A DNA stretch of 64,000 nucleotides from Myxococcota bacterium (GTDB lineage Bacteria > Myxococcota_A > UBA796 > CAJQPC01): contig DASCPX010000070.1 of assembly GCA_036012755.1 (NCBI GenBank), positions 32,001-96,000 of the forward strand, read 5' to 3'. Each line of letters opens with the position of its first letter. Position 1 is the first letter of the stretch. Position numbers and translations under genes: made by a program. The notes under the pieces were generated by a model. That model searched no databases. It saw only the letters and a list, made by a program, of their open reading frames with translations, and was not told the DNA's origin. Positions 4,962 to 24,821 of this stretch are shown here, one piece after another.

Positions 4962-6395
4962 TCAGTCGCAGCCCCGCGCTTCGAGCTCGTAGGGGGCGTC
5001 GTCCTCTGCCTCCACGGTGGCCGCTGGCCAGTGGATGATGCCGGCGTTCCAGACCTCGTTGCGGGACAGCACCATCGAGTCCTCCTCGAAGAGCTCGCCG
5101 TCGAGGTAGAAGCGCACCGTCGCGGTGAGGGCCCCGTCGCCGTTGTGGTCGAAGTAGTGGACGCGCACGGGGTAGTCGCCGTCTGCGGGGGTCTGGATGT
5201 TGATGTTCTCGGGCCCGTAGCCGCCGATGTCGTCGAGGTCGAGGGTCGGGTCGTCCTCTGTCCCGGAGCTACCCCAGCTGGGGCTGGGGTTGCAGTAGCA
5301 GACGTCGCCGGGGCGCTCGAAGAGGGAGGCGTCCTCTGACTCGAGCATGTGGAGATCGACATCAGCGGCGGCGGCGTCCCAGATCATCTCGACGTGGATG
5401 GCGTCCGTCGGGACGGCGTCGATCGAGTACTTCGCCGGCGCGCTCACGACGCCGAGCTCGTTCTCGACGACGAGCTGCACTTCGTAGCGACCCGCGATGT
5501 CGAAGTAGGCCTCCGTCGCGTCCCCGACGGTGTCCTGGAGCTTGCCGCCGGAGCCGGTGGGGGTGACGACCAGGGACCACTCGTAGTCCGTGATCTCCCA
5601 GCCGCCGGGGTCGTACGAGTCCGAGCCGTCGAGCCCGATGGTCTCGGGCGGGTCGACGGAGTCGGGGCCGTCGATGACCGCGACCGGGTAGTCGAAGTCG
5701 CCGCCGCCGTTGCCGAGGAGGGTGACGATGACCTCCGGCTCGTCGGGGTCGTTGCTGGTGATGGCCAGGGAGCCGTTGTCGCCGTCGATGGTCGTCGGCG
5801 AGTACAGCACGATGACCTGCGTGGAGCCGTCGGGCGGGATCGTCTGGAAGGCCGGGTCTCCGAGGATGGAGAAGGTGCCGCTGCCCCCCTGGGAGGTGGT
5901 GCCGATGAGCAGGTCTCCGTCGCCCTGGTTCTTCAGCGTGAACCACATGGTGTCGGCGTCCCCTGGCGCGACGACGTCGAAGTCGACGCTGCTGGGGTCG
6001 AGGTGGATGTCCGGGGTCGGGCCGTCGCCGCCGAGGCCGGTGATTGAGAGTCCGAGCTCGGGGCTGTCCTCGATGTTGGTCGTGAAGACCAGCTCGGTGT
6101 CGTAGTCCTTGTAGGTCGCGGGGGTGAACTGGACGATGATCTCGGCGCGCTCGCCGCGAGGCAGCTCGAGGGTCTCGGGGTCGACGGAGTAGACACCGCC
6201 GAACTCGGCGAAGGCGAGCTCCGCCGTCAGCGGCGCCTGGCCGGTGTTGATGACCTCGACGACGGCCTCCTCCGTGAAGTCGACGACGACTTCACCGAAG
6301 TGGAGGGCCTCCGGGCTGAGGGTCAGCTCGGGGACGAGGACGTTGATCTGCTGGTCCTGCTCACATGAGAGCAGGAGGCCCACAGTGACCCACAT
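4962..6395 (-). CDS. Lipoprotein with two choice-of-anchor D/ASH Ig-like domains, a PKD-like domain and a YfaP/DUF2135-like C-terminus
   Basis: MWVTVGLLLSC; LHFGEV..NTGQAPL; SNDPDEP; LDGSDSYDP; DVDLH...LDLDDIGGYGPENINI. Confidence 0.78.
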   Translation of the reverse strand: MWVTVGLLLSCEQDQQINVLVPELTLSPEALHFGEVVVDFTEEAVVEVINTGQAPLTAELAFAEFGGVYSVDPETLELPRGERAEIIVQFTPATYKDYDTELVFTTNIEDSPELGLSITGLGGDGPTPDIHLDPSSVDFDVVAPGDADTMWFTLKNQGDGDLLIGTTSQGGSGTFSILGDPAFQTIPPDGSTQVIVLYSPTTIDGDNGSLAITSNDPDEPEVIVTLLGNGGGDFDYPVAVIDGPDSVDPPETIGLDGSDSYDPGGWEITDYEWSLVVTPTGSGGKLQDTVGDATEAYFDIAGRYEVQLVVENELGVVSAPAKYSIDAVPTDAIHVEMIWDAAAADVDLHMLESEDASLFERPGDVCYCNPSPSWGSSGTEDDPTLDLDDIGGYGPENINIQTPADGDYPVRVHYFDHNGDGALTATVRFYLDGELFEEDSMVLSRNEVWNAGIIHWPAATVEAEDDAPYELEARGCD

Positions 6396-7327: not shown

Positions 7328-9382
7328 TCACTGGAACCCCAACAGCCCCATCCCCTGGTACGTCAGGAAGCTCGCGACCCACGCCAGCGCTGTCATGTAG
7401 GTGAACAAGAACCCCGTCCATCCCCAGCTCTTCGTCTCTCGCTTCACCGCCGCCAGGGTCGACATGCACTGACAGGCCAGGGCGATGAAGACCATCAGTG
7501 ACAGACCCACGCGCGGTGTCCACACGGGCTGGCCGGAGGCATCGAGCTCGGCCTTCATCTGCTCGCGGAGCGTGGTCGGGTCGTCCTCGTCGAGCTCCTC
7601 GATGGCGTAGACCACGCCCATCGTGCCGACGAAGACCTCGCGGGCGGCGAAGGCTCCGACCAGCCCGACGCCGATCTTCCAGTCGTAGCCCAAGGGCTCG
7701 ATGACGGGCTCCATCGCCTTGCCCATGCGACCGGCGTAGCTGTGCTCGATCTGGTGAGCCGCGGCGACACCCTCGTCCGCTCCATCGAGGTCGGCCTGGG
7801 GGAAGCTCAACAGCACCCACATGCCGATGGTGCAGGCGAAGATGATGGTGCCAGCGTCCTTGAGGAAGCGGCTGGTCTGGCGCCACACGTGGCGGAGCAC
7901 GTCGGGGGGCCGGGGCAGGCGATAGGGCGGCAGCTCCAACAGCAGCGGCGCCGGCGGCGCCCGGAGCATGGTCTTGGACAGGACCAGCCCGGCGGCCAAG
8001 GCGATGAACACCGAGAAGAGGTAGATGCCCATCATCATCAGGCCCTGGGTCGTGAAGAAGCCCAGGACCTTCCTCGGCGGGAACAGGGCCGCGATGATCA
8101 AGGTGTAGACCGGCAGCCTGGCCGAGCAGGTCATCAGCGGGACGACCATCATCGTCAGGATGCGGTCCCGCTTCCGTGACATGGTCCGGGTGGCCATCAC
8201 CGCCGGCACGGCGCAGGCGAAGCCCGACAGCATCGGCACGAAGGCCCGCCCGTGGAGGCCCAGGGGCTTCATCACCCGGTCCATCAGGTAGGCGACCCGA
8301 GCCATGTACCCGGTGTCCTCCATCACCCCGATCAGCAGGAACAAGAGGACGATCTGCGGCAAGAAGACCAGCACGCTGCCGAGCCCGCCGATGACCCCCT
8401 CGACCAGGAAGTCAGTGAACAACCCCGGGGCGAGGTGGCCCGCGACCAGCTCGCCGAGGACACCAAAGAGGCCCTCGATGGCCGTGATCGCCGGGTCCGA
8501 CCAGGTGAAGAGCCCCTGGAAGACCAGGAGCATCACGACCACGAAGATCGCCATGCCGAAGACCGGGTGCAAGAGCACGCGGTCGACCCGCTCGGTGCGT
8601 TCCCGGCTGGCCTCGCCAGGGATTAGAGGCGCGATCTCGCGGTCCAGCCAGTCGTAGCGGGCCCTCACGATCTCCTCGTCGAAGCGCCCCTGTTGCTCCT
8701 CGATCCTGGCCCGAGCCCCGGGCGGGATGCCGCTGAGCTCGTCCTCCTCTCCGACGCTTGACAGCGCCCACAAAGCCAGAGCCCGTTCACCACCGAAATC
8801 TCCTGCGAGCTCGTCGAGGAGCTCGGAGAGCTCGGCCCGGGGGCTCCAGCGCCACCTGGGCTCTTGCTCCCGGTGCTCCAGGGCGTGGGCGATCACCTCG
8901 CGCAGGTCGTCCACACCCTCTCCCGTCCGCGGCACGCAGCCGACCACCGAGCACTGCAGGGCGGTCCCGAGAGCCTCGCTGTCCGGCATGGCCGCGCCGG
9001 CCTCGTCGATCATCGTGAGCGCGACGACGACGTCCAGCCCGAGCTCCTGGATCTGCAGCACCAGGTAGAGGTTGCGCAAGAGGTTCGTGGCGTCGCAACA
9101 GACCACGACGAGGTCAGCTCGAGGCTCCCCGTTGCGGCCGGCGATCCAGTCGATGGCGAGCTGCTCCTCGAGGGAGTGGGCCACCAGCGAATACGTGCCC
9201 GGCAGGTCCCGCAGCTCCAGGGTCCGATCGTCCAGGACGAGCTCGCCGACGAGGGGCTCGACCGTGACGCCTGGGTAGTTGCCCGTGCGAGCCCTGCCGC
9301 CGGTCAGGCGGTTGAACAGGGTGCTCTTGCCCGTGTTCGGGTTGCCCGCGACCAGGACACGAGGTCGCGCTCCCGAGTTCAC
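7328..9382 (-). CDS. feoB: Ferrous iron transport protein B
   Basis: GNPNTGKS, NYPGVTVE, DLPGTYSL, GFACAVPA, CSARLPVY. GTG 9382 overlaps the feoA stop. Confidence 0.97.
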   Translation of the reverse strand: MNSGARPRVLVAGNPNTGKSTLFNRLTGGRARTGNYPGVTVEPLVGELVLDDRTLELRDLPGTYSLVAHSLEEQLAIDWIAGRNGEPRADLVVVCCDATNLLRNLYLVLQIQELGLDVVVALTMIDEAGAAMPDSEALGTALQCSVVGCVPRTGEGVDDLREVIAHALEHREQEPRWRWSPRAELSELLDELAGDFGGERALALWALSSVGEEDELSGIPPGARARIEEQQGRFDEEIVRARYDWLDREIAPLIPGEASRERTERVDRVLLHPVFGMAIFVVVMLLVFQGLFTWSDPAITAIEGLFGVLGELVAGHLAPGLFTDFLVEGVIGGLGSVLVFLPQIVLLFLLIGVMEDTGYMARVAYLMDRVMKPLGLHGRAFVPMLSGFACAVPAVMATRTMSRKRDRILTMMVVPLMTCSARLPVYTLIIAALFPPRKVLGFFTTQGLMMMGIYLFSVFIALAAGLVLSKTMLRAPPAPLLLELPPYRLPRPPDVLRHVWRQTSRFLKDAGTIIFACTIGMWVLLSFPQADLDGADEGVAAAHQIEHSYAGRMGKAMEPVIEPLGYDWKIGVGLVGAFAAREVFVGTMGVVYAIEELDEDDPTTLREQMKAELDASGQPVWTPRVGLSLMVFIALACQCMSTLAAVKRETKSWGWTGFLFTYMTALAWVASFLTYQGMGLLGFQ

Positions 9383-9600
9383 CGGCTGACCTGGATCGCC
9401 TCGGCCTCGGCCTTGCGGATGGAGAGGCATCCACCTCGCACGGCGATCTCGAGGGGGTCACCGAGGGGTGCCACGCGCAGGGTCCGGATCGTGGTCCCGG
9501 GCACCAGGCCCAGCTCGAGCAGGCGGAGGCGAAAAGCCCTGCTGCCGTCGAGTCCTTCGACGGTGGCTTCGTGGCCGATGGGGAGCTGGCGAAGAGTCAT
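9379..9600 (-). CDS. feoA: Ferrous iron transport protein A
   Basis: RLLELGLVPGT...APLGDPLEIAVRG; adjacent to feoB. Confidence 0.95.
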   Translation of the reverse strand: MTLRQLPIGHEATVEGLDGSRAFRLRLLELGLVPGTTIRTLRVAPLGDPLEIAVRGGCLSIRKAEAEAIQVSR

Positions 9601-9661
9601 ATTGAAAAACCGTTTTCAATTAGGCACTGAACGTATAGCCTTATTGAAAACCGTTTTCAAG
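9601..9661. promoter_or_regulatory. Two Fur-box-like palindromes overlapping the feoAB promoter
   Basis: ATTGAAAAACCGTTTTCAAT (9601-9620) and ATTGAAAACCGTTTTCAAG (9643-9661) in an AT-rich island. Minus strand reads TTGAAA-17 nt-TATACG. Confidence 0.8.
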
Positions 9662-9665
9662 AAGA

Positions 9666-9863
9666 TCAGTAGTGGGGCGGGACCTCGTCCTCGAGCTTGT
9701 TCGCCTGCCCCCCCGCGGCCACCACCTGGTCCCGGACTTCAGCCAGGTCTCGCCTGAGCTGTTGGACCTCGCGGTTCAGCACCTGGACCACACCGTCGAG
9801 CTCGGCGATGAGCTGGTCCTGGTAGGCGCACTTGATCTCCAGCTCCTCGATGCGCTTGTCCAT
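9666..9863 (-). CDS. slyX: SlyX family protein
   Basis: RIEELEIKCAYQDQLIAELD...EDEVPPHY. Confidence 0.93.
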   Translation of the reverse strand: MDKRIEELEIKCAYQDQLIAELDGVVQVLNREVQQLRRDLAEVRDQVVAAGGQANKLEDEVPPHY

Positions 9864-10489
9864 CACTCGCCGCCGACGAAAGCGCGGAGCTTTCGGCGAG
9901 TCGGGGCGTCGACGTCGACGAACTCGAAGGCCACCCCGTCGCTGTCGCGGCGGGCTACCCGGCCGGAGACCACCAGGTGGGTCTTGCTGTCGGGCTCCAC
10001 GATCACCAACTCGACGGTTGAGGTGTCCGAGATCGGCAGGTGCGTCGTGACGTAGACGCCGCCGGCGGACAGGTCGTGGGTGTCGAAGCACTCGCCGTCG
10101 AGCCCCCCGATGCGGCAGACGACCGCGACCTGCGCTCGCGGGAAGGTGCGCCGCTCGTCCGCCTCACCCCGCTGACCCTGCTCCAGAGAGGCGATGAAGC
10201 GCTCCCAGTAGCGCCGGCTGCCGTGGACGAAGACCGAGAACGACAGGCCGCAGCCGCTGGTGTCCTCTGGGGCCGGGCGGGCGATCATCGTGGCCTCGAC
10301 GATGTTCGTGTCGGGCAGCTGGAGCCGCAGCCAGACGAGGTCGCCGGTCTTGCAGCCCGGGTGGCTGTCGATGTGGAGGCCGAACCGGGAGACGTTCGTC
10401 GTCTCGCAGGTCAGGCGAGTCTCGAAGACGCCGATGTCCACCGGAAGCTGGACTTCGAAGCGCGGAGCGCGGCGGCCTTGGTCCGACAC
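9863..10489 (-). CDS. Tandem PilZ-domain protein
   Basis: RRAPR...NVSRFG and RRTFPR...DLSAGG. GTG start at 10489. Confidence 0.85.
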   Translation of the reverse strand: MSDQGRRAPRFEVQLPVDIGVFETRLTCETTNVSRFGLHIDSHPGCKTGDLVWLRLQLPDTNIVEATMIARPAPEDTSGCGLSFSVFVHGSRRYWERFIASLEQGQRGEADERRTFPRAQVAVVCRIGGLDGECFDTHDLSAGGVYVTTHLPISDTSTVELVIVEPDSKTHLVVSGRVARRDSDGVAFEFVDVDAPTRRKLRAFVGGE

Positions 10490-10491
10490 GC

Positions 10492-11283
10492 TCAGAGCAT
10501 ACCGAGGAGGCCCTCGCAGGCCTCTCTCATGGCTCTGACCTGCTCCGGACTCATGGGGTCCGAGGCGGTGTAGGTCTTCATCAGCTGGAGGTTCATCTCG
10601 AGTGGCTCCAGCACGCCGCTGGGGATGACGTCGCCCCCGACCGTCGCAGCGTAGGTCGCGAAGTAGTCGCCAATCGGCGGTTTGTGGAACAGCGCGTGGC
10701 CCGCCTCGTAGCGCTCCGTGTCCTCCATCGCGCCTGCCAACAGTGCGAAGGCCTGGAGCCATGCCCCCGCCGCCATCAGCGGGATGATCTCTTCCCCACC
10801 GTGGTCCTCGACGAGATCGAGGGCGTGCATCCGGCCATTGTCCAGCCGCGCGAGGACCTCTTCTGGAAGGGGTCCGGTGCGCAGGAAGGCCTCCATGTCT
10901 TGCGCGGCAGCGGAGGCTGGTCCGTCCACCTTGATGGCGTCCAGGCCGGTCTGGATGCGCGCCATGCGTTCGGCCACGAGATCCGGGTCTGCGACTCCGA
11001 CCTCGATCGCGAAGGCTCCGATCTCTGCGCCGGTGCGCGCCGCCGCGATGTTCGCCACCACCACATCCGGCTTGTGCTCGACAGCGCGTGCCCGCACCAC
11101 TGCGGCTTCCTGGAGGCCAGCCGCGGTCATCGCGGCGTGGAGTTCGACGAGGCTCGGCACGAGCTCCACGCCCTCTGGCCGGTACTCGAAGGCCATCTCG
11201 CGCCCTGGCGCCGAGCCCTCGACCGGGGCGGGCTCCGGCGGCTCCGGCTCCTCGACGGAGCATGCCAAGAGGAGGAAGATCAC
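10492..11283 (-). CDS. Helical lipoprotein of unknown function
   Basis: MIFLLLAC; start overlaps the upstream stop. Confidence 0.7.
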   Translation of the reverse strand: MIFLLLACSVEEPEPPEPAPVEGSAPGREMAFEYRPEGVELVPSLVELHAAMTAAGLQEAAVVRARAVEHKPDVVVANIAAARTGAEIGAFAIEVGVADPDLVAERMARIQTGLDAIKVDGPASAAAQDMEAFLRTGPLPEEVLARLDNGRMHALDLVEDHGGEEIIPLMAAGAWLQAFALLAGAMEDTERYEAGHALFHKPPIGDYFATYAATVGGDVIPSGVLEPLEMNLQLMKTYTASDPMSPEQVRAMREACEGLLGML

Positions 11284-12512
11284 TACTCGGGCAGGAGTCC
11301 GACGACGGATGCCTGGGAGGCGATGGCCGCCTCACCCCAGAGCTCCTCGCTGGACAGCAAGTTCGGTGTCATCCAGATCTGGCCCGTGTGGTTGATGACC
11401 ACGAGCCCCCAGGTTCCGGTCGGGACCTCGTCTCCGACGAGCTCTTCGCCGTAGCTGCCGTCCTCGAGCACTGGGACGGCGGTTCCGGTCCATAGCAGCG
11501 GCAGGCGCGAGCTCGAGTAGGGCGCATTCGGCACCATCGCCGCGGGCAGGACCCAGTCGTCCGAGTGGGTCAGGGCACGCTGGAAGGGAGTGGCTCCGCC
11601 GTCGTCCGGGTTCGGCCGGAAGTCGATGAGCGCCTGGGAGATGGTGGCCTGCTCCGGGGGGTTGCCGTCTTCGTCCAAGAGGTGCCGCATCACCACGACC
11701 GGCCACATGTCGATGGCGCCGAGCCCCGCCGCCGCTTCGACCGGGTGGGGGTCTGCAACGCCGTCGCCGTCCTTGTCCCGCGCGATGACCGTGAAGGTCG
11801 TCGGGCAGTCCTCTGCGGTGGGGTCCTCGAGCTCCAGGAGGGGGTGCGAGATGCCAGTCGAGTCCAGGTCGAACTCGTGGTCGTGCACGTTGAAGACGTT
11901 GTTCTCGAGGTTGCGGTGGGGCAGGGTCTCCAGCGCCATCGCTCCGAGGCCGTATGCGGGACGCTCCCAGGGCAGGGGATCACCGACGAGGATGGTGATG
12001 CCGTCGACGTGGTCCGGGGCCTCGACCGACAGCGGCAGGATCTCGCCGCTGGCCGCGTCGAGCACGTAGGCGCCCAGCTGATCGCCGCAGGTCGCGCCGC
12101 CCGCGAAGTCGGTGAAGAAGGGGTTGAAGTCGTCGTCGTTGTCGATCAGCGCAGAGACGACGTAGTCGCCGGAGGCCAGGCCGGTGACCCCCCATGGCGC
12201 GCTCACCACGCCCTCTGCATAGGTCCCCAGCCGCTCGCCGGAGCCAGCGCCCCACTCGTTCGAGCCGATGGTCGCCAGGGCGATCGGCGAGCCGAAGCCG
12301 TTGGGCGGCGGGAGGTCGTCAGCCTCGTAGATGAGCACGTGCCCGACGCGCCGGTCGAGGAGCTCTCCACCGCTGTCGATGCTCTGGGTGGACGCCGAGC
12401 CGCTGGTCAACACGACGTCTCCGGAGAGCACGACCGTCTCCGGGTAGTCGCCGTAGTCGACGAAGGGGGCTTCGTAAGCGCAGCCGAGGAGGAGGGATCC
12501 GGTGAGGGTCAT
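11283..12512 (-). CDS. Acidic beta-rich lipoprotein of unknown function
   Basis: MTLTGSLLLGC; starts 2 nt after the TBDR stop; GDYVVSALIDNDDDF. Confidence 0.7.
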   Translation of the reverse strand: MTLTGSLLLGCAYEAPFVDYGDYPETVVLSGDVVLTSGSASTQSIDSGGELLDRRVGHVLIYEADDLPPPNGFGSPIALATIGSNEWGAGSGERLGTYAEGVVSAPWGVTGLASGDYVVSALIDNDDDFNPFFTDFAGGATCGDQLGAYVLDAASGEILPLSVEAPDHVDGITILVGDPLPWERPAYGLGAMALETLPHRNLENNVFNVHDHEFDLDSTGISHPLLELEDPTAEDCPTTFTVIARDKDGDGVADPHPVEAAAGLGAIDMWPVVVMRHLLDEDGNPPEQATISQALIDFRPNPDDGGATPFQRALTHSDDWVLPAAMVPNAPYSSSRLPLLWTGTAVPVLEDGSYGEELVGDEVPTGTWGLVVINHTGQIWMTPNLLSSEELWGEAAIASQASVVGLLPE

Positions 12513-12514
12513 GA

Positions 12515-15004
12515 TCAGAACCGGTACTGGACGGAGCCGTGGTAGCGGGAGCCGATGGGCTGCCCGAGGGGATGCTGGACCGTGTCGCCTTGGATGTCCG
12601 CGAGCCAGTTCCAGGCGTTCAGGGACAGATCCATGCGCTCCTCGCCGAGGGGCACGTGCCACACGAGCTTGTTCGACAGCACGATGCGACCCGGGCTGTC
12701 GGTGTCGACCGAGATGAACCGGCCCTCTTCGTCGAAGCCGCGGATCGGCCAGACCTGCCGGTCGACCCAGTTCGCCTGCATGCCGATGTCGAGGGTCCAC
12801 GGGCTGCGCCAGGCCACCCCGGCGTTGACCTTGTGGCGCGGGGTGGCGCGCAGGACGGTCTTCTCCTGGCCGACCTCGGCGATGCGCTCGTAGGCGTAGT
12901 TGGCGTAGGCGTCGACTCCCTCGATGCCGAAGTACTCGGCGCTGGCCTCGGCACCCACTGCCCGGAAGATCTCCCCCTCGTTGGCGAAGCTGGCCTGGCC
13001 CGCGACGTAGGCGCCGATGTCTTCGTCGAAGCCCCCCGCCGGCGCGGTAGAGGAGTCGAGGTCTGTGAGGTCGATGAGGTTGTCGACCTGGAAGCCATAG
13101 ACGGCCAGCTCGGCGCGGAAGACATCGGTGGAGTGGTCGAGGTAGCCGATCTCGAGCGACGCGATGCGCTCGGGTGCGAGCTCTGGATCGCCGACGGTGT
13201 TGACGCGGACGCCGTCGATGCCGCTGTCCAGGTAGAGGTTCGAGTAGGACTCCATGAAGGTCGGGGTCCGGAAGGCGGTGCCGGCGTTCACACGCACCGC
13301 GCGGCCCTCGCCCACCCTCGTGACCACCGACAGGCGCGGTGAGGGGATCGGGTTGGCGATCAGGGGGTGCTTGTCCACCCGGACGGCGCCGGAGAGCAGC
13401 ACCGGCCCGAAGCGCGACTCGTCCTGGATGAAGCCCGAGAAGTGATGCTGGACGTGGTCCGCGTCGAGGAAGCCCCAGACGATGCTCTTGTAGCGGTAGT
13501 TCACGCCGACGAGCAGCGTGTGGCGGTCATCTGCTCCGAAGTGGAAGTTGCCGTCCGCGGTCGCGTCGAAGACGTCGGAGAGCAGCTGCGAGGTGAGCGC
13601 GTAGCCCTCGGTCGGGTGGTACCAGCTGCCGGTGTCACCGTTGAGGCGGTTGTAGAAGGCGCGCACATGCAGCGGCCCGTAGCCGGCGTCGCCGCGCACA
13701 TAGCTGTTGCGCTGGTCCAGGTAGAAGTCGCGGAGCGCGCCGAGGCTCATGAACTCGATGAGGCCCACGGCCGAGCCACCGGAGACCGAGACGAAGCCCC
13801 TGTCCCCGACTCGCCAGTCGACCTGCCCGTTGGCCTTGGTCATCTCCAGCGCCGTGTCCTGGTCCTCGACGTCCGAGTAGAGGTCCGGACGGGTCGACAG
13901 GTCGACCGGCTGGGCCCAGCGGCCGTAGGTCGTGTAGCCGGCGGAGACGCGCCACCCCATGTTGTCCTGCCTGCCGCTCATCATGGCCGAGCCGTCGGCG
14001 TAGCCCCCCGTGCCGCCGCCGACGCGCAGCACGTTGTCGTTGGCGGGATCGCCAGGGGTCTTCGTGATGATGTTGACGACGCCGGCGAAGGCGTTGGCGC
14101 CGTAGATCGCCGAGCCGGGACCGCGGATGACCTCGATGCGGTCGATCTCGGCGAGGGTGATCGGAAGGGCCTCCCACAGGGTCGCGCCGATGAAGTCGAG
14201 GTAGACGCTGCGCCCGTCGACGAGGACGAGGAGCTTGTTGGACAGGCGCTTGTTGAAGCCACGCACCGACAGGTCGGACTGCCCGGCGGTCAGCGACAAG
14301 GCGTCCACGCCGGGGATCCGCGCGAGCAGCTCCGGCACGGACGTCGCCGAGCTCATCGCGATGTCCTCTGCCGTGAGGATCGTGATCGCGGCGGGTGCCT
14401 CCAGCGGGTCCTGGCCGTAGCGTGACGCCGTGACGACCACCCGGGCATAGAGGTCCTCGACCAGCGCGCCCTCCAGGGCGAGGGACTCGGGCTCGACGGT
14501 GGTGGGCTCCTCGATCTCGACCGCGACCACCTCGCCTGCTGCCTGCTCTCGTGCCGCCAGCTTCTCGGCGAGGGCCTGGAGCTCCTCTGCGTGGCGCCGC
14601 AGCTCGGCGAGCTCGTCCGCTGTCGCGACCGGGCCGGTGGAGGTGGTCTCGGGGACCTCGACCGGTGCCAGTGCGGCCATGCGGGTCCGCAGGGTCGCGA
14701 TGAAGCCCTCGACCGCTGCGCGGTCGATCGGCTCTGTGGCCAGGTAGAGCTCGAAGGTCTGGATCGCTTCTTCGTAGTGTCCCGCGTCGGCGTAGGCGCG
14801 GGCGATGTTGTAGAGCACGGCTGGGTGGGGGACGAGGTCGTAGGCCTTCTCGAACTTCTCGATGCCGCCGATGTAGTCACCGGTGGCGATGAGCTCGAGG
14901 CCCTCGTTGAAGGCTCGTCGCGCCTCGTCCTTCGGGGCCGCGAGGGCAGTCGAGGACCAGAGCAGGGACAGTCCCAGCAGGCAGCGCGAAAAGGAGTTCT
15001 TCAT
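12515..15004 (-). CDS. TonB-dependent receptor with N-terminal TPR domain
   Basis: Signal peptide; TPR (FEKAYDLVPHPAVLYNIARAY); VVVTASR TonB-box-like segment; plug RIEVIRGPGSAIYGANAFAGVVNIITK; terminal QYRF. Confidence 0.93.
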   Translation of the reverse strand: MKNSFSRCLLGLSLLWSSTALAAPKDEARRAFNEGLELIATGDYIGGIEKFEKAYDLVPHPAVLYNIARAYADAGHYEEAIQTFELYLATEPIDRAAVEGFIATLRTRMAALAPVEVPETTSTGPVATADELAELRRHAEELQALAEKLAAREQAAGEVVAVEIEEPTTVEPESLALEGALVEDLYARVVVTASRYGQDPLEAPAAITILTAEDIAMSSATSVPELLARIPGVDALSLTAGQSDLSVRGFNKRLSNKLLVLVDGRSVYLDFIGATLWEALPITLAEIDRIEVIRGPGSAIYGANAFAGVVNIITKTPGDPANDNVLRVGGGTGGYADGSAMMSGRQDNMGWRVSAGYTTYGRWAQPVDLSTRPDLYSDVEDQDTALEMTKANGQVDWRVGDRGFVSVSGGSAVGLIEFMSLGALRDFYLDQRNSYVRGDAGYGPLHVRAFYNRLNGDTGSWYHPTEGYALTSQLLSDVFDATADGNFHFGADDRHTLLVGVNYRYKSIVWGFLDADHVQHHFSGFIQDESRFGPVLLSGAVRVDKHPLIANPIPSPRLSVVTRVGEGRAVRVNAGTAFRTPTFMESYSNLYLDSGIDGVRVNTVGDPELAPERIASLEIGYLDHSTDVFRAELAVYGFQVDNLIDLTDLDSSTAPAGGFDEDIGAYVAGQASFANEGEIFRAVGAEASAEYFGIEGVDAYANYAYERIAEVGQEKTVLRATPRHKVNAGVAWRSPWTLDIGMQANWVDRQVWPIRGFDEEGRFISVDTDSPGRIVLSNKLVWHVPLGEERMDLSLNAWNWLADIQGDTVQHPLGQPIGSRYHGSVQYRF

Positions 15005-15022
15005 GGCCTCAGCAGCAGCAGA

Positions 15023-16576
15023 TCAGTCGTCGAAGGGGTTGGCCTTGTACCCGGCGGGAGCTTCTTTGGTCTCGGATTCGGTCGTCGTCTCGGGTTCGCT
15101 CCCGGAGCCAGCGTCCTCCGTCTCGGTGGCGACGACCTCGACGGTCGGGGTCGTCTTGACGGGGACAGGTCGTCTCGGCTCGGGCTCGAAGTCGAGATCG
15201 GGGTCTGGCGGGAGCTCGAGGACCGCCGGCGCTTCGAGTCGCTCCAGCGTCGCGTCGATCTCGAGCTCGCTGGAGGTCGAGAGGTCACGCTCGATGCGCG
15301 CCGAGACATAGCCGGGCAGGCTGAACTCGAAGCTGCGCAGGTCGGGCGACGCCGTCGACTCCAGGGTCAGGTTCATCGGCGTGTGGCCGAGGACCCGCTC
15401 CTGGCTGCGGACCTCGGCCCCCAGCGGTGTCGAGCGCAGGCTCAGCTCCACGCTGCGCGCCGCGGGGGTGGTCGTCCGGGTGGTCGCCGTCTCGGTGTCT
15501 TCGCCCATGAGCAGGGCGCCGCCGACGATGAGGGCTGCGAGAAGGACAGCAGCGGCGATGAGCAGGGGCCGCTTCTGCGATGGCCGTGGCTCTACGATCG
15601 TGGAGAGCGCCGTGAGGTCCTCTGGTGGGATCTCGCCGCAGGCTGCGAGGCCCTTGATGACGCTGCCCATGTCCGAGAAACGGCCGCTCGGGTCCTTTGC
15701 CAGGCAGCACTCGATGAGCCTCTCGAGGCCCTCTGGCAGCTCCAGGTCCGGGTAGCGCTCGGTGAGGCGCGGGATCGGCTCGTTGACGTGGGCGAGCATG
15801 GTCGACGTGGTCGTCTGGCCGTGGAAGGGGTACTCGCCGGCGATGCAGCGGTAGAGCAGGACGCCCAGGGCGTAGATGTCAGCGCGCTCGTCGAGGTCGG
15901 CCCCCTGGACCTGCTCAGGGGCCATGCAGTGCGGGCTGCCGAGGATCATGCCGGTGACCGTGATCGACTGGTCGCCCTCTGTGAGCTTGGCGAGGCCGAA
16001 GTCGACGACCTTGATGTGGTCAGCGCCATCCTCTTGCGCGATCAGCAGGTTGCCAGGCTTGAGATCGCGGTGCACCACCCCGTGGCGATGGGCGTGCTTG
16101 AGCGCCCGTGCGACCTGGATCATCAAGGTGATCGTGCGCATCGGCGCCAGCGGCCCCTCCGCCTGGAGCAGGCGGGACAGGGTGCGCCCGCGGACGTACT
16201 CCATGACCAGGTAGTAGGTGCCGTCCTGGGTCTGCCCGTAGTCGTGCAGCGTGACGGTATGGGGGTGGCTCAGGCGGGCGAGGGTCGAGGCCTCGAGGAA
16301 GAAGCGCCGCTCGAAGCTCGCTGAGTCGTTGGAGTTGGGCGGCTCCAGCAGGATCTTGATCGCCACGCGACGCCCCAGCGGAACCTGCTCCGCCTCATAC
16401 ACCGACCCCATGCCGCCTTTCGCGATGCGACGAAGGACGCGGTAGCGGCCCGCCAGCTCCCTTCCGACGAGGGGGTCCTGCTTGGGGGTGCGCTCGGTGC
16501 GCTTCTCCTGAATGTGTCGGTCTCCAGCCTGAGAATCGGAACGGGCATCGCTGATATGCGACGGTAATCGTAGCAC
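15023..16576 (-). CDS. Membrane Ser/Thr protein kinase with periplasmic PEGA-like domain
   Basis: IAKGGMGSVY, VAIK, HRDLKPGN, DFG, APE; one TM helix; STPLGAEV...LGHTPM...LPGY; ends YKANPFDD. Start uncertain. Confidence 0.92.
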   Translation of the reverse strand: MLRLPSHISDARSDSQAGDRHIQEKRTERTPKQDPLVGRELAGRYRVLRRIAKGGMGSVYEAEQVPLGRRVAIKILLEPPNSNDSASFERRFFLEASTLARLSHPHTVTLHDYGQTQDGTYYLVMEYVRGRTLSRLLQAEGPLAPMRTITLMIQVARALKHAHRHGVVHRDLKPGNLLIAQEDGADHIKVVDFGLAKLTEGDQSITVTGMILGSPHCMAPEQVQGADLDERADIYALGVLLYRCIAGEYPFHGQTTTSTMLAHVNEPIPRLTERYPDLELPEGLERLIECCLAKDPSGRFSDMGSVIKGLAACGEIPPEDLTALSTIVEPRPSQKRPLLIAAAVLLAALIVGGALLMGEDTETATTRTTTPAARSVELSLRSTPLGAEVRSQERVLGHTPMNLTLESTASPDLRSFEFSLPGYVSARIERDLSTSSELEIDATLERLEAPAVLELPPDPDLDFEPEPRRPVPVKTTPTVEVVATETEDAGSGSEPETTTESETKEAPAGYKANPFDD

Positions 16577-19693: not shown

Positions 19694-21352
19694 TTAGCGG
19701 CCCGGAGAGGCCCTCACCGGGACGTCCAGGGGGGCGTCGGTCCCGACCGGCCGGTGGAGGCCCGCGAGGGGATGGTCCACACCCTCGAGGAAGGCCCCTG
19801 TGGGGAACACCTCGGCCAGCGCGTTCCGCTCGAGGGCATCCAGTGGCCCCACGGCCAGGCCGTAGCCGAAGGCCAGCTCCTCTGGCTCCTCGGCGTCTTC
19901 CAGGGCGCGCGCGAGGCAGTCCCGGCGCTTGCCGCAGCGCGCCAGGAGCGCCGCCCCACCGGCCGAGGCCAGCCAACCTTCCGCAGGCGCCTCGGGTCCG
20001 AGGTGAGCGACGAGGTTCGCCGCCATTCCCCGTCCGATCGCCGCGTCCTCGGGGGGCTCCCAGTCCCCGAAGGGCTCCCTGGCCTCGTGCAGTCCGACGC
20101 CGAAGCGGATCGATGGATCGGAGCTCGTCCCGCCCTCACGAGCGATCGCGATGCCCTCGAGCAGCCGCAGGAGCAGCTCCTCGCGGAGGCCGTCGCCGCG
20201 GGCCTCGTGGAGGTCTTCGAGGTCCAGGCGATGGCTGGCCTCTGCGGCGAAGAAGACGAGCTCGGTGGCTCGTGGCATCGGGGTGGGGTCCGGAGCCCAT
20301 GGTCGCGTCACCAGCGCGGCGATCACCATCGGCAGGGCGAGCAGGCCACGGTGGCGCTCGGCGGTCGCGGCGACGAGCAGCATGAGGCCGAGGACCCAGG
20401 GGCCCCAGTAGCGCCCGTTCATCAAGACTGTGACGCCGGGGTCCTCTGGGAGGGCGACTCCGGAGAGCGCGAACCCGGCGGCGAAGGTCAGGGGCAGCGC
20501 CACGAGGATCGAGCGCCGCGACAGCAGGGCGGACACCAGCCCGCCGATGAGCAGCGGCGCCGCCGCCCAGGCTCCCGAGAGGAAGACGCGCTCACCGACC
20601 ACGACCGGATCGATGAGCTGTATGAGCCGCGACAGCGGGGCGCTGGAGAGCTCGGTGAAGCTGTAGCCGATGGAGTCCCCGCCGGCGCTGGGGATCAGGA
20701 TCCAGCTGACTCCGAGTGCCCACGACACCGCCAGTTTGGCCAGCTCCTTCGGGGAGCGCCGATGGGTCCAGGCGGCGGCGAGCAACAGGGGCAACCCGAA
20801 CACGGCGGTGCGGCAGAAGGCCAGGCCGAAGCCCAGGGCTCCACCGACGAGCCAGCTGCGCCGGGTCGCGTAGCCCCACAGGGCGAGCATCACGAAGAGC
20901 TGCACCTCGTGGTGGTTGCCGAAGATCACGAGCCCCTGGGCGGACAGCGCCGCCGGAGGGGCTGCGTTCAACAGCGCCCATGTGCAGGCGGCCCAGGACC
21001 CGCACATGCGGCGAAGCGCCAGCCAGCCGAAGACCGTCGTAGCGGCGGTCCAGGCGAAGCCCTGGAGCTTCCATGCCCACAGGGTGTCGCCGAAGACCGA
21101 CAGCGGCCCGGCTCCGATGACGCTGACGACCGTGCAGCCGCCGCAGAACTCCTTGTAGCGGAGGTCCAGGAGCGCCCCGCCGAGGTCGCCGTGCACGAGC
21201 ATCCAGGCGACCGTGGCGTTCCAGGCCTCCTCCACCTCGGAGAGGGAGGCCGGATCGATGAAGAGCCAGTGCGCGTCGAGCAGGATCCGCACCGCCAGCG
21301 CCGCGGCGAGGACGGCGAGGTCCCGTTTCTCAGTCCAGGCGAGAGAGCGCAA
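19694..21352 (-). CDS. Polytopic membrane protein, GT-C-fold glycosyltransferase-like
   Basis: About 10 TM segments; EE pair in the first loop (SEVEEAWNA); GNHHE; soluble C-terminus. TTG start approximate. Confidence 0.55.
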   Translation of the reverse strand: MRSLAWTEKRDLAVLAAALAVRILLDAHWLFIDPASLSEVEEAWNATVAWMLVHGDLGGALLDLRYKEFCGGCTVVSVIGAGPLSVFGDTLWAWKLQGFAWTAATTVFGWLALRRMCGSWAACTWALLNAAPPAALSAQGLVIFGNHHEVQLFVMLALWGYATRRSWLVGGALGFGLAFCRTAVFGLPLLLAAAWTHRRSPKELAKLAVSWALGVSWILIPSAGGDSIGYSFTELSSAPLSRLIQLIDPVVVGERVFLSGAWAAAPLLIGGLVSALLSRRSILVALPLTFAAGFALSGVALPEDPGVTVLMNGRYWGPWVLGLMLLVAATAERHRGLLALPMVIAALVTRPWAPDPTPMPRATELVFFAAEASHRLDLEDLHEARGDGLREELLLRLLEGIAIAREGGTSSDPSIRFGVGLHEAREPFGDWEPPEDAAIGRGMAANLVAHLGPEAPAEGWLASAGGAALLARCGKRRDCLARALEDAEEPEELAFGYGLAVGPLDALERNALAEVFPTGAFLEGVDHPLAGLHRPVGTDAPLDVPVRASPGR

Positions 21353-24300
21353 TGCGAGTCGCCTCGATCTGGTCGGGCTGGCCGATGCCCTTCCACTGCT
21401 CCAGGGCCAGCTCCAGGACGACGCGAGCGCGAGATGGGGCGGCTCGCCCGGCCAGGGCCCCGGCCAGCTGCAGGGCCCGCGCCACGTCCCCGTCGACGAT
21501 GCCGGTGCCGAGGAGATCGCGCTGGATGCCCGCCATGTGTTCGTCCCAGGACTGCCAGTCCGCCAGCGCCGCAGAGGTGGGCAACAGCAGCGCGTGCGCG
21601 ATCCCGGCCCAGGCTCTGCGGCCACCCCGCTCGGCGAGCTGCAGGCCGGTCCGCAGCGCCTCGAGGGCACCCTCGTAGTGTGCTCTCTCGAGGCGGACGA
21701 TGCCCAGGTTGAGGCAGGGCTCCAGCGTGTCGGGGTTTCCCAGCTTCCGCAGCAGGTCGAGCGCCTCGAGGTAGCCCTCCTCTGCGGCGACGAGGTTGCC
21801 GCGCCGGCGCTCCCAGTCCGCGTGGCTGTTGAGCGCGGAGGCGCGGCCCAAGAGGCTGCCCACCTGCTCGTACCCGGCCCTGGCCTCCAGGGTGAGTGCG
21901 ACGGCCTCGTCGAGCTCGCCGAGCTCGCCGTGGGCTTGCCCGAGCAGCAGTTTGACCTCTGCCAGGCGGCGGATGTCCGACTCGGCCCTGGCGATGTCGG
22001 CCGCCCGCCGACCCAGGGAGATGGCCTGGCGATAGCGTCCCTTGAGGCTGGCGCTGCGCGCCATCTGGCAGATGCCCAGGGCCTCGAGCTTGCGGTCTCC
22101 GAGGACCCGCGCCAGGGCTACGGCGCGGCGTGTCCTCAACTCGTGGACCTCGAGCGCCCCACGCTTGAAGGCGGCGATGGCGGCCTCGCAGAGCGCGGAG
22201 GCGCCGATCGTTGAGGAGCCGTGGAGCTCGACCAGCTGCTCGGCGAGGGTCTCTCCGTCCACAAGCCGGCCTCGACCGATGAGCACCCGCACCCGGACCA
22301 GGAGCGCCTGGCCGACCTCGTCGTCGGCGGGCTCCAGGTCCAGCTCCTTGCAGCAGCGGGCGTGCAGCCGCAGCAGGCTCATGGCGCCCGGGTAGTCGGT
22401 CCCTTCGTAGCGCTGGGTCGCCCCGAGGCGCAGGGGCTCCAGCGCGTCTCGCAGTCTTCCGGCGGCCACCAGGTGCTTGCCGAGACGGGAGGCGATCCCT
22501 CGCTCTTCGACGCCGTGGAGGCTGGCCAGCATGCGCGCGCAGGCCCCGTGGAGCTCCGACCAGCGTCGCTCGTCTCGCACGGATCGCTCCAGGCTCTCCC
22601 GCAGCATGGGGTGGGACCAGCTCCAGCCTCCGGGCTCCAGGCGCACCAGGCGCCGGGCGACCAGCGCCTCGGCCAGCGCCGCTGGCCAGTCCAAGCCCGC
22701 TTCCTTCAGCGCCAGCCTCCACTCCTGCTCGTCGATGACGCCGCCGAGGAGGGCGGCGAGCTCCAGCGCGATGCGCTCGTCCTCGCTCTGGAGCAGCTCG
22801 GAGACCCGGCCATCCCAGAGGCTGTGGAGGTCGTCCGGGATCTCGGCTCTGGCGCCGGCCTTGAGGCGGAAGCCCCCTCGACCGACCTCGAGGAGCTCCC
22901 GGCGGACCCAGTCCTCCACGAGCTGCACGGCGAACATCGGGTTTCCGTGGGCGCGGCTCCGCACCTCTCTCGCCAGCTTGCGGTCGAGCAGCAGGAGCTC
23001 CTCGATGAGGCGCCGGAATGTCTCCACCGGAAGCGGCTCCAGGCTCAGCGTCCGGCACTTGGGGTCTCTCGAGAGCCCCCCGAGCGCCTCCGCCGTCTCC
23101 GCGTCGAGGCCCTCGTCGCGGGCCGACAGCAGGAGCAGCACCGGGCTGGGTGTCTGGTCCTGGGCGTCGAGCACCCAGCGCGCGAAGTCCAGGGCGTCGC
23201 GACCCCACTGGAGGTCGTCGAGCAAGACGATCGCTGGCCGATCGAGGCGGCCCAGGTGCCGGCTGAGCATCGCGTAGCGCTCCTCTGGGGAGGAGGTGTG
23301 CATCTCCGGCGAGGGGCTCATCCAGTCCGCGAGCGCTCGCCACTCCCAGCTCTCCGCCACCCCTTGGCGCCGCAGGATGCGCTCCAGCCGGTTCTGGGTG
23401 TCCTCGTTGGAGAGACCCTCGCAGCCCGTGTGGCGCGCGAGCATGCGGCCGAGGCCCCGAGACCCGGCTCCAGGAGAGTGGGTCGCCGCCAGGATGCGCG
23501 CCGCGCCCAGCTCCGCCGCGCGCTCGGTGGCCCACTGGGCGAGGCGTGACTTGCCCACGCCGGGCGCTCCCCTGAGCAGCACGGCTCGAGCCCGAGAGGT
23601 GAGCGCCACGTCCCGAAGGGCATCCCAGATCTGGTCCCGTCCCTGCTCCCGTCCCACCAGCGCGACCGTGCGCAGTCCCCACAGGCCGAGTCCGGCGCCG
23701 ACGAGCCTGGGGGAAGGAGGAGGGGCCTCTGGATGACGCCAGGTCGGGGGAAGCGGCGGGGGCCGGGTCGGGGCGAGCTTGACCGGGGGCGGAGCTGCGA
23801 GGGCGTCGTCGTCCGCGATGTCCTCGTCGAAGCCGGCGGCGCCGTAGCCCTCCGCGAGCCAGGCCTGCGTCGGGAGGGAGCGTCCGTGGCCGACGAGGGA
23901 CAGGGGCACGGTGAGGTTCGCCGCGGCGCGCTTGCGCGGGATGGCCAGGGGAGTGGCCGAGCCGGGAGGGTCCGGCAGGCGGGTGAGCGCGAAGGCGGCG
24001 TCGGCGGCGCAAGCGAAGCGGCAGTGCGGGTCCTTCTCGAGGAGCCGGTGGAGCCAGCCGTCGAAGGTGACCGGCAGGCCCTCGCTGTAGGCGAAGGGCT
24101 CCGGCTCGTCGTAGAGGTGGGCTTGCCTCAAGACGGCGTAGTCCGTCTCTGGAAAGGGGCTGACCCCGGCTGCCATCTCCCAGGCCATGCAGCCCAGCGC
24201 GTAGAGGTCGGTCCAGGGCCCGTAGTCGCGCCAGCGCCCGTGGAACTGCTCGGGGGCCATGTAGCGCGGGGTTCCGCTGGCGCCCCGGTAGCGCTTGCCC

Positions 24301-24821
24301 AGGGCGTCGCCGGCGTGGGCGAGGCCGAAGTCCGCGAGCTTCAGCCCCGGTCGGGTGTCATCTGGACCCGAGACGAGCACGTTGCCCGGCTTCAGATCCC
24401 GGTGGACGACGCCGCGGGCGTGGGCGTGGGCCAGCGCGTCCAGCAGATCCAGGAGCGCGCCCTTGAGATCCGCCCACGTCCGGATGAGGTTGCTGGTCGA
24501 CATGCTGCCGCCGCTGGCCAGCTCCATCACGAGGTAGGGGCTGCCCGCCAGCATGCGCCCGCCGCTGAGCCGCTCGGCCTCCAGCGGGACCTCGCCGTGG
24601 TCGAAGACCAGCACGACGCCTGGGTGATCGAGGCCAGCGACGGCGCGCACCTCGTCGCGGAAGGAGGCCAGGTAGGTCGCGCGTCTGGCCAGGGCGTTCG
24701 TGATCACCTTGACCGCGACGGGCACGCCCTGCTCGGGGTGCACACCTCGCCACACCTCCCCCATACCGCCAACTGCCAGGGGTGAGTCGATTCGAAAGGG
24801 TCCCAGCAGGATCGCAGCCAT
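21330..24821 (-). CDS. Ser/Thr kinase - AAA/STAND ATPase - TPR protein
   Basis: HRDLKPGN, DFG, APE; GAPGVGKS; LLDDLQW; GNPMFA; TPR-like C-terminal helices. Confidence 0.92.
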   Translation of the reverse strand: MAAILLGPFRIDSPLAVGGMGEVWRGVHPEQGVPVAVKVITNALARRATYLASFRDEVRAVAGLDHPGVVLVFDHGEVPLEAERLSGGRMLAGSPYLVMELASGGSMSTSNLIRTWADLKGALLDLLDALAHAHARGVVHRDLKPGNVLVSGPDDTRPGLKLADFGLAHAGDALGKRYRGASGTPRYMAPEQFHGRWRDYGPWTDLYALGCMAWEMAAGVSPFPETDYAVLRQAHLYDEPEPFAYSEGLPVTFDGWLHRLLEKDPHCRFACAADAAFALTRLPDPPGSATPLAIPRKRAAANLTVPLSLVGHGRSLPTQAWLAEGYGAAGFDEDIADDDALAAPPPVKLAPTRPPPLPPTWRHPEAPPPSPRLVGAGLGLWGLRTVALVGREQGRDQIWDALRDVALTSRARAVLLRGAPGVGKSRLAQWATERAAELGAARILAATHSPGAGSRGLGRMLARHTGCEGLSNEDTQNRLERILRRQGVAESWEWRALADWMSPSPEMHTSSPEERYAMLSRHLGRLDRPAIVLLDDLQWGRDALDFARWVLDAQDQTPSPVLLLLSARDEGLDAETAEALGGLSRDPKCRTLSLEPLPVETFRRLIEELLLLDRKLAREVRSRAHGNPMFAVQLVEDWVRRELLEVGRGGFRLKAGARAEIPDDLHSLWDGRVSELLQSEDERIALELAALLGGVIDEQEWRLALKEAGLDWPAALAEALVARRLVRLEPGGWSWSHPMLRESLERSVRDERRWSELHGACARMLASLHGVEERGIASRLGKHLVAAGRLRDALEPLRLGATQRYEGTDYPGAMSLLRLHARCCKELDLEPADDEVGQALLVRVRVLIGRGRLVDGETLAEQLVELHGSSTIGASALCEAAIAAFKRGALEVHELRTRRAVALARVLGDRKLEALGICQMARSASLKGRYRQAISLGRRAADIARAESDIRRLAEVKLLLGQAHGELGELDEAVALTLEARAGYEQVGSLLGRASALNSHADWERRRGNLVAAEEGYLEALDLLRKLGNPDTLEPCLNLGIVRLERAHYEGALEALRTGLQLAERGGRRAWAGIAHALLLPTSAALADWQSWDEHMAGIQRDLLGTGIVDGDVARALQLAGALAGRAAPSRARVVLELALEQWKGIGQPDQIEATRIALSRLD

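Follow-up and report, generated by a model that had tools for sequence, protein, structure and literature searches.

A three-gene cassette of kinase, TPR-fused TonB-dependent receptor, and lipoprotein in Myxococcota, with a kinase tail that may dock in the receptor

The question raised by this locus is whether a TonB-dependent receptor can control a transmembrane Ser/Thr kinase across the periplasm, and which of the surrounding genes take part. The locus lies in a 64,000-nucleotide stretch from a Myxococcota bacterium (contig DASCPX010000070.1, positions 32,001 to 96,000; hereafter the window), whose genome is 6.7 Mb, and consists of eight genes, all on the minus strand, that run from the kinase through a receptor fused to tetratricopeptide repeats (TPRs) to feoB. 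A first-pass annotation had taken the six genes before feoAB (the kinase, the receptor, lipoproteins LP1 and LP2, a tandem PilZ protein, and slyX) as one signaling system, possibly linked to iron uptake and cyclic di-GMP (c-di-GMP). We find that the real unit is three genes—kinase, TPR-receptor, and LP1—and that this cassette is real, conserved, and undescribed as far as our literature search reached. The C-terminal tail of the kinase probably binds the TPR domain of the receptor directly, as judged from sequence comparisons, and we lean toward a reading in which the receptor, with the tail in its TPR groove, switches the activity of the kinase.

The kinase, receptor, and LP1 genes

Of 401 genomes sampled from the phylum, 76 gave a receptor match. 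Loci were taken from 72 of these and from 7 weaker ones, a scan of the collection added a further 78, and six duplicates were dropped; the resulting set holds 96 other loci with TPR and receptor and 55 without a TPR in view. Kinase adjacency was scored only where 2.5 kb or more of upstream sequence was available. Of the 83 such loci with a TPR-receptor, 71 have a kinase upstream, and in 61 it stops no more than 400 nt from the TPR; the kinase at L055, counted among the 71, is unrelated by the kinase tree. None of 40 TPR-less receptor relatives has an upstream kinase, and the adjacency proposed in the first pass is thereby borne out. LP1 was found downstream of the receptor by profile search in 81 of 91 loci. 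A further 20 loci came from close kin, all relatives of one named genome, and one of them duplicates L102. The TPR is in view at 19 of these, each of which has a tail-bearing kinase, and all 20 have LP1. The six-gene system did not hold up: slyX, feoA, and feoB occur in none of the 96 other loci, and the PilZ protein and LP2 in three each, all of the window's own family.

That kinase and receptor are unrelated neighbors held together by genome inertia is scarcely credible. Their trees broadly track taxonomy, which fits inertia, but the trio is kept down to ~33–35% receptor identity while the flanking genes differ among lineages, and the kinase tail is kept after the gene relocates (see below). 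Named receptor homologs are mostly myxobacterial (Corallococcus, Stigmatella, Archangium, Hyalangium, and others). The FAD synthetase gene ribF recurs near the cassette in 13 Polyangia-like loci (L044, L050, L057, L064, and others), apparently as lineage synteny, and at L003, L007, L058, and L114 the kinase or receptor is divided between two frames, through either a frameshift or an assembly error.

The features of the core genes are as follows.
15023..16576, minus strand: single-helix Hanks-type Ser/Thr kinase, core gene 1
15674..16444, minus strand: cytoplasmic kinase domain, amino acids 45–301 (Pkinase match; HRDLKPGN and DFG intact)
15503..15565, minus strand: predicted transmembrane helix, amino acids 338–358 (sequence hydropathy)
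15239..15451, minus strand: PEGA-like, putatively periplasmic domain, amino acids 376–446 (E 0.008, under the Pfam cut-off)
15026..15052, minus strand: C-terminal motif GYKANPFDD (family consensus G[YF]KxxP[YF])
12515..15004, minus strand: TPR-fused TonB-dependent receptor, core gene 2 (domain matches and AlphaFold model)
14669..14935, minus strand: two TPR repeats and capping helix, amino acids 24–112 (conserved groove R29, F32, H60, N66, R69, D73, D94)
14531..14620, minus strand: helical linker of the receptor, amino acids 129–158 (AlphaFold model)
14420..14449, minus strand: TonB-box-like segment YARVVVTASR, amino acids 186–195 (conserved among receptor relatives)
11283..12512, minus strand: lipoprotein LP1, core gene 3 (lipobox-like LLGC; two predicted β-sandwich domains; DxDGDG acidic motif)

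The window kinase is a Hanks-type transmembrane Ser/Thr kinase, as seen from its catalytic motifs and single helix (PF00069, E 8e-52). The kinase domain is followed by one hydrophobic helix (amino acids ~338–358), a weak PEGA match, and a 71-amino acid tail rich in E, P, and T; translation may start further downstream than the first GTG. Catalytic motifs are retained among homologs (DFG in 72 of 73, HRD[LIV]KPxN in 67 of 73), 69 of the 73 have a single hydrophobic peak, and many are annotated with PEGA (PF08308). The catalytic domain would thus lie inside the cell and the PEGA domain and tail in the periplasm, where the kinase arms have a median length of 139 residues. The Stk1/PknB PASTA kinase family model NF033483 scores 299 bits, below its cut-off of 450 and over the kinase domain only, and no PASTA match was found in the window kinase. 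By NCBIfam, kinase, receptor, LP1, and LP2 are all without an above-cut-off family. Elsewhere in the window (21330–24821, minus strand) a large protein combines kinase, AAA, and TPR domains; 69 kinase-domain frames were found in the genome, this one included.

The receptor is a TonB-dependent transporter by its plug and β-barrel (PF07715 and PF00593, both above cut-off), with TPR matches at amino acids 33–98 and the plug at 201–309. No match to the STN domain (PF07660) was found in it at E up to 0.05, and the TPR stands in its place. The AlphaFold model (mean predicted local distance difference test, or pLDDT, 84.9), whose best fold matches are BtuB and Cir, has five helices in the TPR region (amino acids 24–112) and a further helix (129–158), with a disordered segment (158–185) separating this linker helix from the plug and barrel. 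The domain matches and the model together confirm the earlier proposal of a TPR and linker between the receptor N-terminus and the TonB-box-like segment. A conserved [ED]xxVV[TS]A[ST] segment precedes the plug among receptors, at low pLDDT in the model; as YARVVVTASR in the window it resembles a TonB box and may be one. The genome has 13 TonB_C matches. A signal peptide is predicted for the receptor, and lipoboxes for LP1 and LP2.

Neither LP1 nor LP2 was assigned a family by Pfam or NCBIfam, and the best matches of both in atlas searches were only unnamed clusters. LP1 is predicted to fold as two β-sandwiches that weakly resemble pilotins and type V fimbrial proteins. Its N-terminal domain resembles pilotins at middling scores (Z 7.5 and 7.2; for the best, root-mean-square deviation 3.1 over 105 aligned), Foldseek gave a weak match (TMq 0.22), and a fold search with LP1 returned nothing at Z 8. 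LP1 may be an accessory lipoprotein of the receptor.

The kinase tail and the receptor TPR domain

All 69 kinase tails that could be paired with a receptor fall into two classes, 50 in class A (G[YF]KxxP[YF]) and 19 in class B (GY[ML]x[LM]P[DE][DE][FL]), in agreement with the conserved C-terminal motif that had been proposed. Between 0 and 4 residues may follow the last aromatic residue. The motif pattern matches at 63 of 83 loci, a count that is circular because the pattern was derived from these same loci; it was therefore tested in reverse, as an exact DNA pattern across the 401 genomes. This returned 49 matches. Eighteen were discarded for a TGG in place of the stop codon, and seven G[YF]KxxPF-stop matches as short or non-coding frames; the other 24, exact G[YF]KxxPY-stop matches, are all in genomes with the cassette TPR type. 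Twenty of these close the gene upstream of a receptor, two of them at loci cut by contig ends. Two more are the ends of kinases located elsewhere (one, L162, outside the cassette kinase clade). The last two belong to non-kinase proteins that combine cytoplasmic TPRs with one helix and a PEGA domain (tails GYKAEPY and GFKNQPY; L159:2840–4024 and L160:2540–4024), in genomes with tandem receptors.

The motif is retained in kinases displaced by 0.6–3.3 kb from the receptor, and its synonymous codons vary. Both facts led us to reject a reading at the DNA level, as a ribosome site or promoter. Tail-bearing kinases are encoded elsewhere in all four class-A genomes tested that lack a cassette kinase beside the receptor, and two further receptors without an adjacent cassette kinase are second copies. 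Of the 65 complete kinases in the window's genome, only 2 have such an ending, and these two lie one before each of the two best TPR matches. Tandem duplicated TPR receptors lie downstream of one kinase at L037, L041, and L060, and at L061 one receptor frame has two TPR units, with an upstream kinase frame that lacks the tail.

TPR ligand-groove positions (2, 5, 6, 9, 12, and 13), which are generally variable among TPRs, and the contact of the position-6 Asn with the ligand backbone are taken from text of PMC1261162. The register on the receptor was assigned with a TPR consensus that we take to be standard. Conservation is higher in the groove columns than in the remaining non-core TPR columns (0.68 versus 0.45, among sequences whose kinship inflates the p-value), and N66 is present in 68 of 69.

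Tail and TPR also change together. Class B forms a single clade, which a FastTree phylogeny places next to the window's clade as its sister. Between the classes, 12 of 77 TPR columns switched, compared with 5 of the 138 plug columns and 7 of the 509 that make up the barrel. D94 of the TPR is present in 49 of 50 class-A receptors and is K, R, or Q in all 19 of class B, where K+1 of the tail is lost; these two residues form a predicted charge-swap pair, and the clade offers a natural specificity switch. Three loci with decayed tails (L017, L023, and L029) also have decayed TPRs (identity 0.31–0.42 versus 0.51–0.69) on near-normal plugs and barrels, and count as about two events because two are close in the kinase tree. 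Direct binding of the tail to the TPR is likely because the tail is kept when displaced, occurs on non-kinases, and has co-changed and co-decayed with the TPR.

A different reading is that some other periplasmic factor, such as a tail-specific protease or chaperone, reads the tail, while the TPR binds LP1 or TonB and the linkage reflects a common pathway. Proteases and PDZ domains are known to recognize aromatic C-termini, and the linkage of LP1 is as tight as that of the kinase. We nevertheless consider this quite improbable: it is the TPR, and not the plug or barrel, that switches and decays with the tail, and the groove is intact at kinase loci without a nearby LP1 (L025, L026, L046, L090, L095, and L107).

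If the tail docks in the TPR, the ~140-residue periplasmic arm of the kinase would span to the receptor and place its last residues in the groove. Once ligand is bound and TonB engaged, the receptor N-terminus would shift, and this movement would alter clustering and autophosphorylation of the kinase, with LP1 serving as the accessory lipoprotein. The outside-in direction and activation by clustering are suggested by analogy to PpkA. Alternatively, the contact could be a tether that places the kinase, aids assembly, or controls the transporter from inside, with no reporting of ligand. Such a tether would suit several observations: the same tail occurs on non-kinase transmembrane PEGA proteins; many proteins that lack a plug carry related TPRs together with a hydrophobic hairpin at the C-terminus and a final Phe, and these often follow kinases; and the LP1 N-terminal domain has a middling likeness to pilotins. 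It appears unlikely, as the kinases retain their catalytic motifs and the TPR occupies the site of the FecA-type signaling domain, right before the TonB-box-like segment.

Several observations weigh against a receptor that switches its kinase through the docked tail. Twelve of 83 loci lack a nearby kinase, and no output gene conserved beside the cassette emerged from a scan of flanking proteins. In four clade-B genomes with the receptor but no cassette kinase beside it, no tail-bearing protein was among the loci returned, yet the TPRs of these receptors score 0.49–0.64. The circularity of the motif count weighs here too, as does our own assignment of the TPR register from the general consensus. 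The tail–TPR switch is one evolutionary event in one clade, whose members are kin and not independent, and the evidence joining tail and TPR is correlative, from which binding is inferred. On balance, we still favor control of the kinase by the receptor.

The pairing of tails and TPRs may extend beyond the cassette. A TPR profile gave 3–50 matches per genome in five genomes, and 18 of 49 further TPR loci have a kinase directly upstream. Among 17 kinases that precede TPR proteins other than receptors, nine have P[WFY] plus 0–3 residues at their end. These 17 include the second pair of the window's genome (L080:5989–8402; G000 C193), a kinase ending LKDPWAD followed by a 241-codon frame with signal peptide and TPR but no barrel. 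Four kinases before TPR-PEGA proteins (L216, L221, L226, and L227) end in D-x3-4-R; a plug or barrel was confirmed for two. We tentatively raise the possibility of a general myxobacterial address code across the periplasm, in which the tails of many inner-membrane kinases and of some non-kinase membrane proteins are each read by a TPR on a cognate envelope protein: G[YF]KxxPY and GYMxLPDDF for the cassette receptor, D-x3-4-R for TPR-3xPEGA receptors, and [DN]P[WFY] for TPR-hairpin proteins. If true, it would be an undescribed class of trans-envelope signaling and would assign inputs to part of the myxobacterial kinome. Polyangia-like genomes have dozens of TPR matches each, and L171–L217 hold a large secreted TPR family whose members finish with a hydrophobic helical hairpin and then a Phe-containing β-strand at the terminus.

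Iron, c-di-GMP, and the Myxococcus xanthus counterpart

The genes and sites that follow LP1 in the window are these.
10492..11283, minus strand: lipoprotein LP2, local passenger (lipobox-like LLAC; Myxococcota hypothetical family)
9863..10489, minus strand: tandem PilZ protein, local passenger
9666..9863, minus strand: slyX, not a conserved neighbor
9644..9660, no strand assigned: perfect palindrome TTGAAAACCGTTTTCAA, putative Fur-like operator of feoAB
9601..9620: imperfect second copy of the palindrome
9379..9600, minus strand: feoA, likely a separate transcription unit
7328..9382, minus strand: feoB

From kinase to slyX the intergenic gaps are 18, 2, −1, 2, and −1 nt, followed by 65 nt before feoA; a scan for sigma-70 promoters and terminators found neither. 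The palindrome TTGAAAACCGTTTTCAA between slyX and feoA is the sole such site in the genome, where 0.008 are expected, and its imperfect copy abuts the feoA start codon. The palindrome does not match the 19-bp E. coli Fur consensus, which had no hits at up to three mismatches. The description of feoAB as Fur-boxed is plausible because the palindrome fits what we take to be the δ-proteobacterial Fur box; the genome has one Fur gene.

This tight packing and the palindrome, along with generic database labels such as "iron complex receptor", are what speak for treating the whole stretch as a single system for iron uptake and c-di-GMP, with a siderophore-importing receptor that works with PilZ and FeoAB. 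We regard that as very improbable, given the distribution of feoAB, slyX, and the PilZ homolog described above. A Fur-like site occurs in 1 of 97 cassette loci (the window, upstream of feoA) versus 6 of 40 TPR-less receptor loci, and none lies upstream of the kinase or receptor in the 97.

The M. xanthus counterpart is MXAN_6043–6045, matched by length, order, and annotation rather than by sequence. ABF89024.1 has 545 amino acids and ends PYKDDPYN, MXAN_6043 is 1638 nt, MXAN_6044 is annotated with TPR repeat, plug, and barrel, and MXAN_6045 overlaps MXAN_6044 by 4 nt. MXAN_4557/4559 and MXAN_6545/6547 were ruled out as the counterpart by their differing kinase lengths. According to supplementary rows of PMC6791715 and PMC9548883, MXAN_6043–6045 are expressed in growth and development. 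Iron-uptake genes rise in co-culture with prey, as stated in PMC9548883 and PMC11388931. In the PMC9548883 supplement, the Fur-boxed receptor MXAN_6911 goes from 10/16 to 127/128 fragments per kilobase per million (FPKM), about tenfold, in such co-culture, while MXAN_6044 stays flat (31/28 to 29/33 FPKM at 2 h) and MXAN_6043 drops (log2 −1.76 at 6 h).

The link to iron suggested in the first pass is thus not borne out, as feoAB is absent from the other loci and has its own putative operator and MXAN_6044 is not induced. The link to c-di-GMP likewise lacks support, the PilZ protein being confined to the window's family. Both extensions are to be dropped; a ferric siderophore is an unlikely ligand of the receptor. 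Beyond feoB, on the opposite strand, lies a four-helix-bundle 23S rRNA intervening-sequence protein (PF05635; 6737–7066, plus strand), and at 4965–6395 (minus strand) a probable lipoprotein that has Ig domains of the HYDIN/ASH type as well as a PKD domain.

Relation to known signaling systems

The activators of many myxobacterial membrane Ser/Thr kinases are a long-open question, and tail–TPR docking, if true, would be an undescribed route for signals between two membranes. The cassette offers a cheap and specific test in a model organism, with one peptide, one 90-residue domain, and MXAN_6043–6045. We found no paper describing the cassette or its tail in a search that judged most papers by title and start of abstract, with supplements and subscription papers largely outside it, and no functional study of MXAN_6043–6045 was found in the literature. 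MXAN_6044 appears in one table, with nothing else on the cassette in passages of PMC3222651, PMC8963815, PMC4158809, PMC12204202, and PMC7694542.

As a peptide-binding domain, the cassette TPR resembles those of HOP (with Hsp70/90) and PEX5 (with PTS1) in its groove positions and conserved position-6 Asn (N66), but it has only two repeats and a capping helix. A strict carboxylate clamp for the tail is doubtful because of the variable number of residues after its last aromatic. The lipoprotein gene directly after the receptor recalls SusC/SusD and BtuB/BtuG. SusD is helical and BtuG a propeller, whereas LP1 is predicted as two β-sandwiches.

Action across the periplasm on an inner-membrane Hanks kinase has precedents, by their abstracts, in TagQ/TagR-PpkA of the P. 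aeruginosa H1 type VI secretion system (T6SS) and TssW-PpkA of Acidovorax, where an envelope lipoprotein or outer-membrane protein acts on the kinase (PMC13713981, PMC12607579). Compared by these abstracts, the PpkA systems mention no TonB-dependent barrel, TPR, or tail motif, and their output is Fha and T6SS assembly. TagQ/TagR partners and linked T6SS or Fha genes are not recurring neighbors of the cassette, with one FHA protein among 111 flanking proteins.

In a Pfam survey of 34,893 TonB-dependent transporters, five N-terminal architectures composed of CarboxypepD_reg, STN, and AMIN are described, and the term TPR occurs 0 times in the main text (PMC6434023). The cassette has in common with FecA-FecR-FecI, FpvA-FpvR, and PupB-PupR a TonB-dependent receptor that carries an N-terminal extension in the periplasm and whose gene neighbors that of a single-pass protein of the inner membrane. 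In FecA-FecR-FecI this extension signals to the inner-membrane protein, and known TonB-dependent transducers signal via sigma/anti-sigma pairs. The cassette has instead a TPR in place of STN and a Ser/Thr kinase in place of an anti-sigma factor. Extracytoplasmic function (ECF) sigma factors, FecR, and iron-uptake families were found in none of 111 flanking proteins (of 176 called; first ≤330 amino acids; E ≤ 1e-8), in keeping with the proposed absence of a sigma/anti-sigma pair, and the two FecR matches in the window's genome are both on other contigs. By analogy, the cassette would work like FecA-type surface signaling while falling outside that family.

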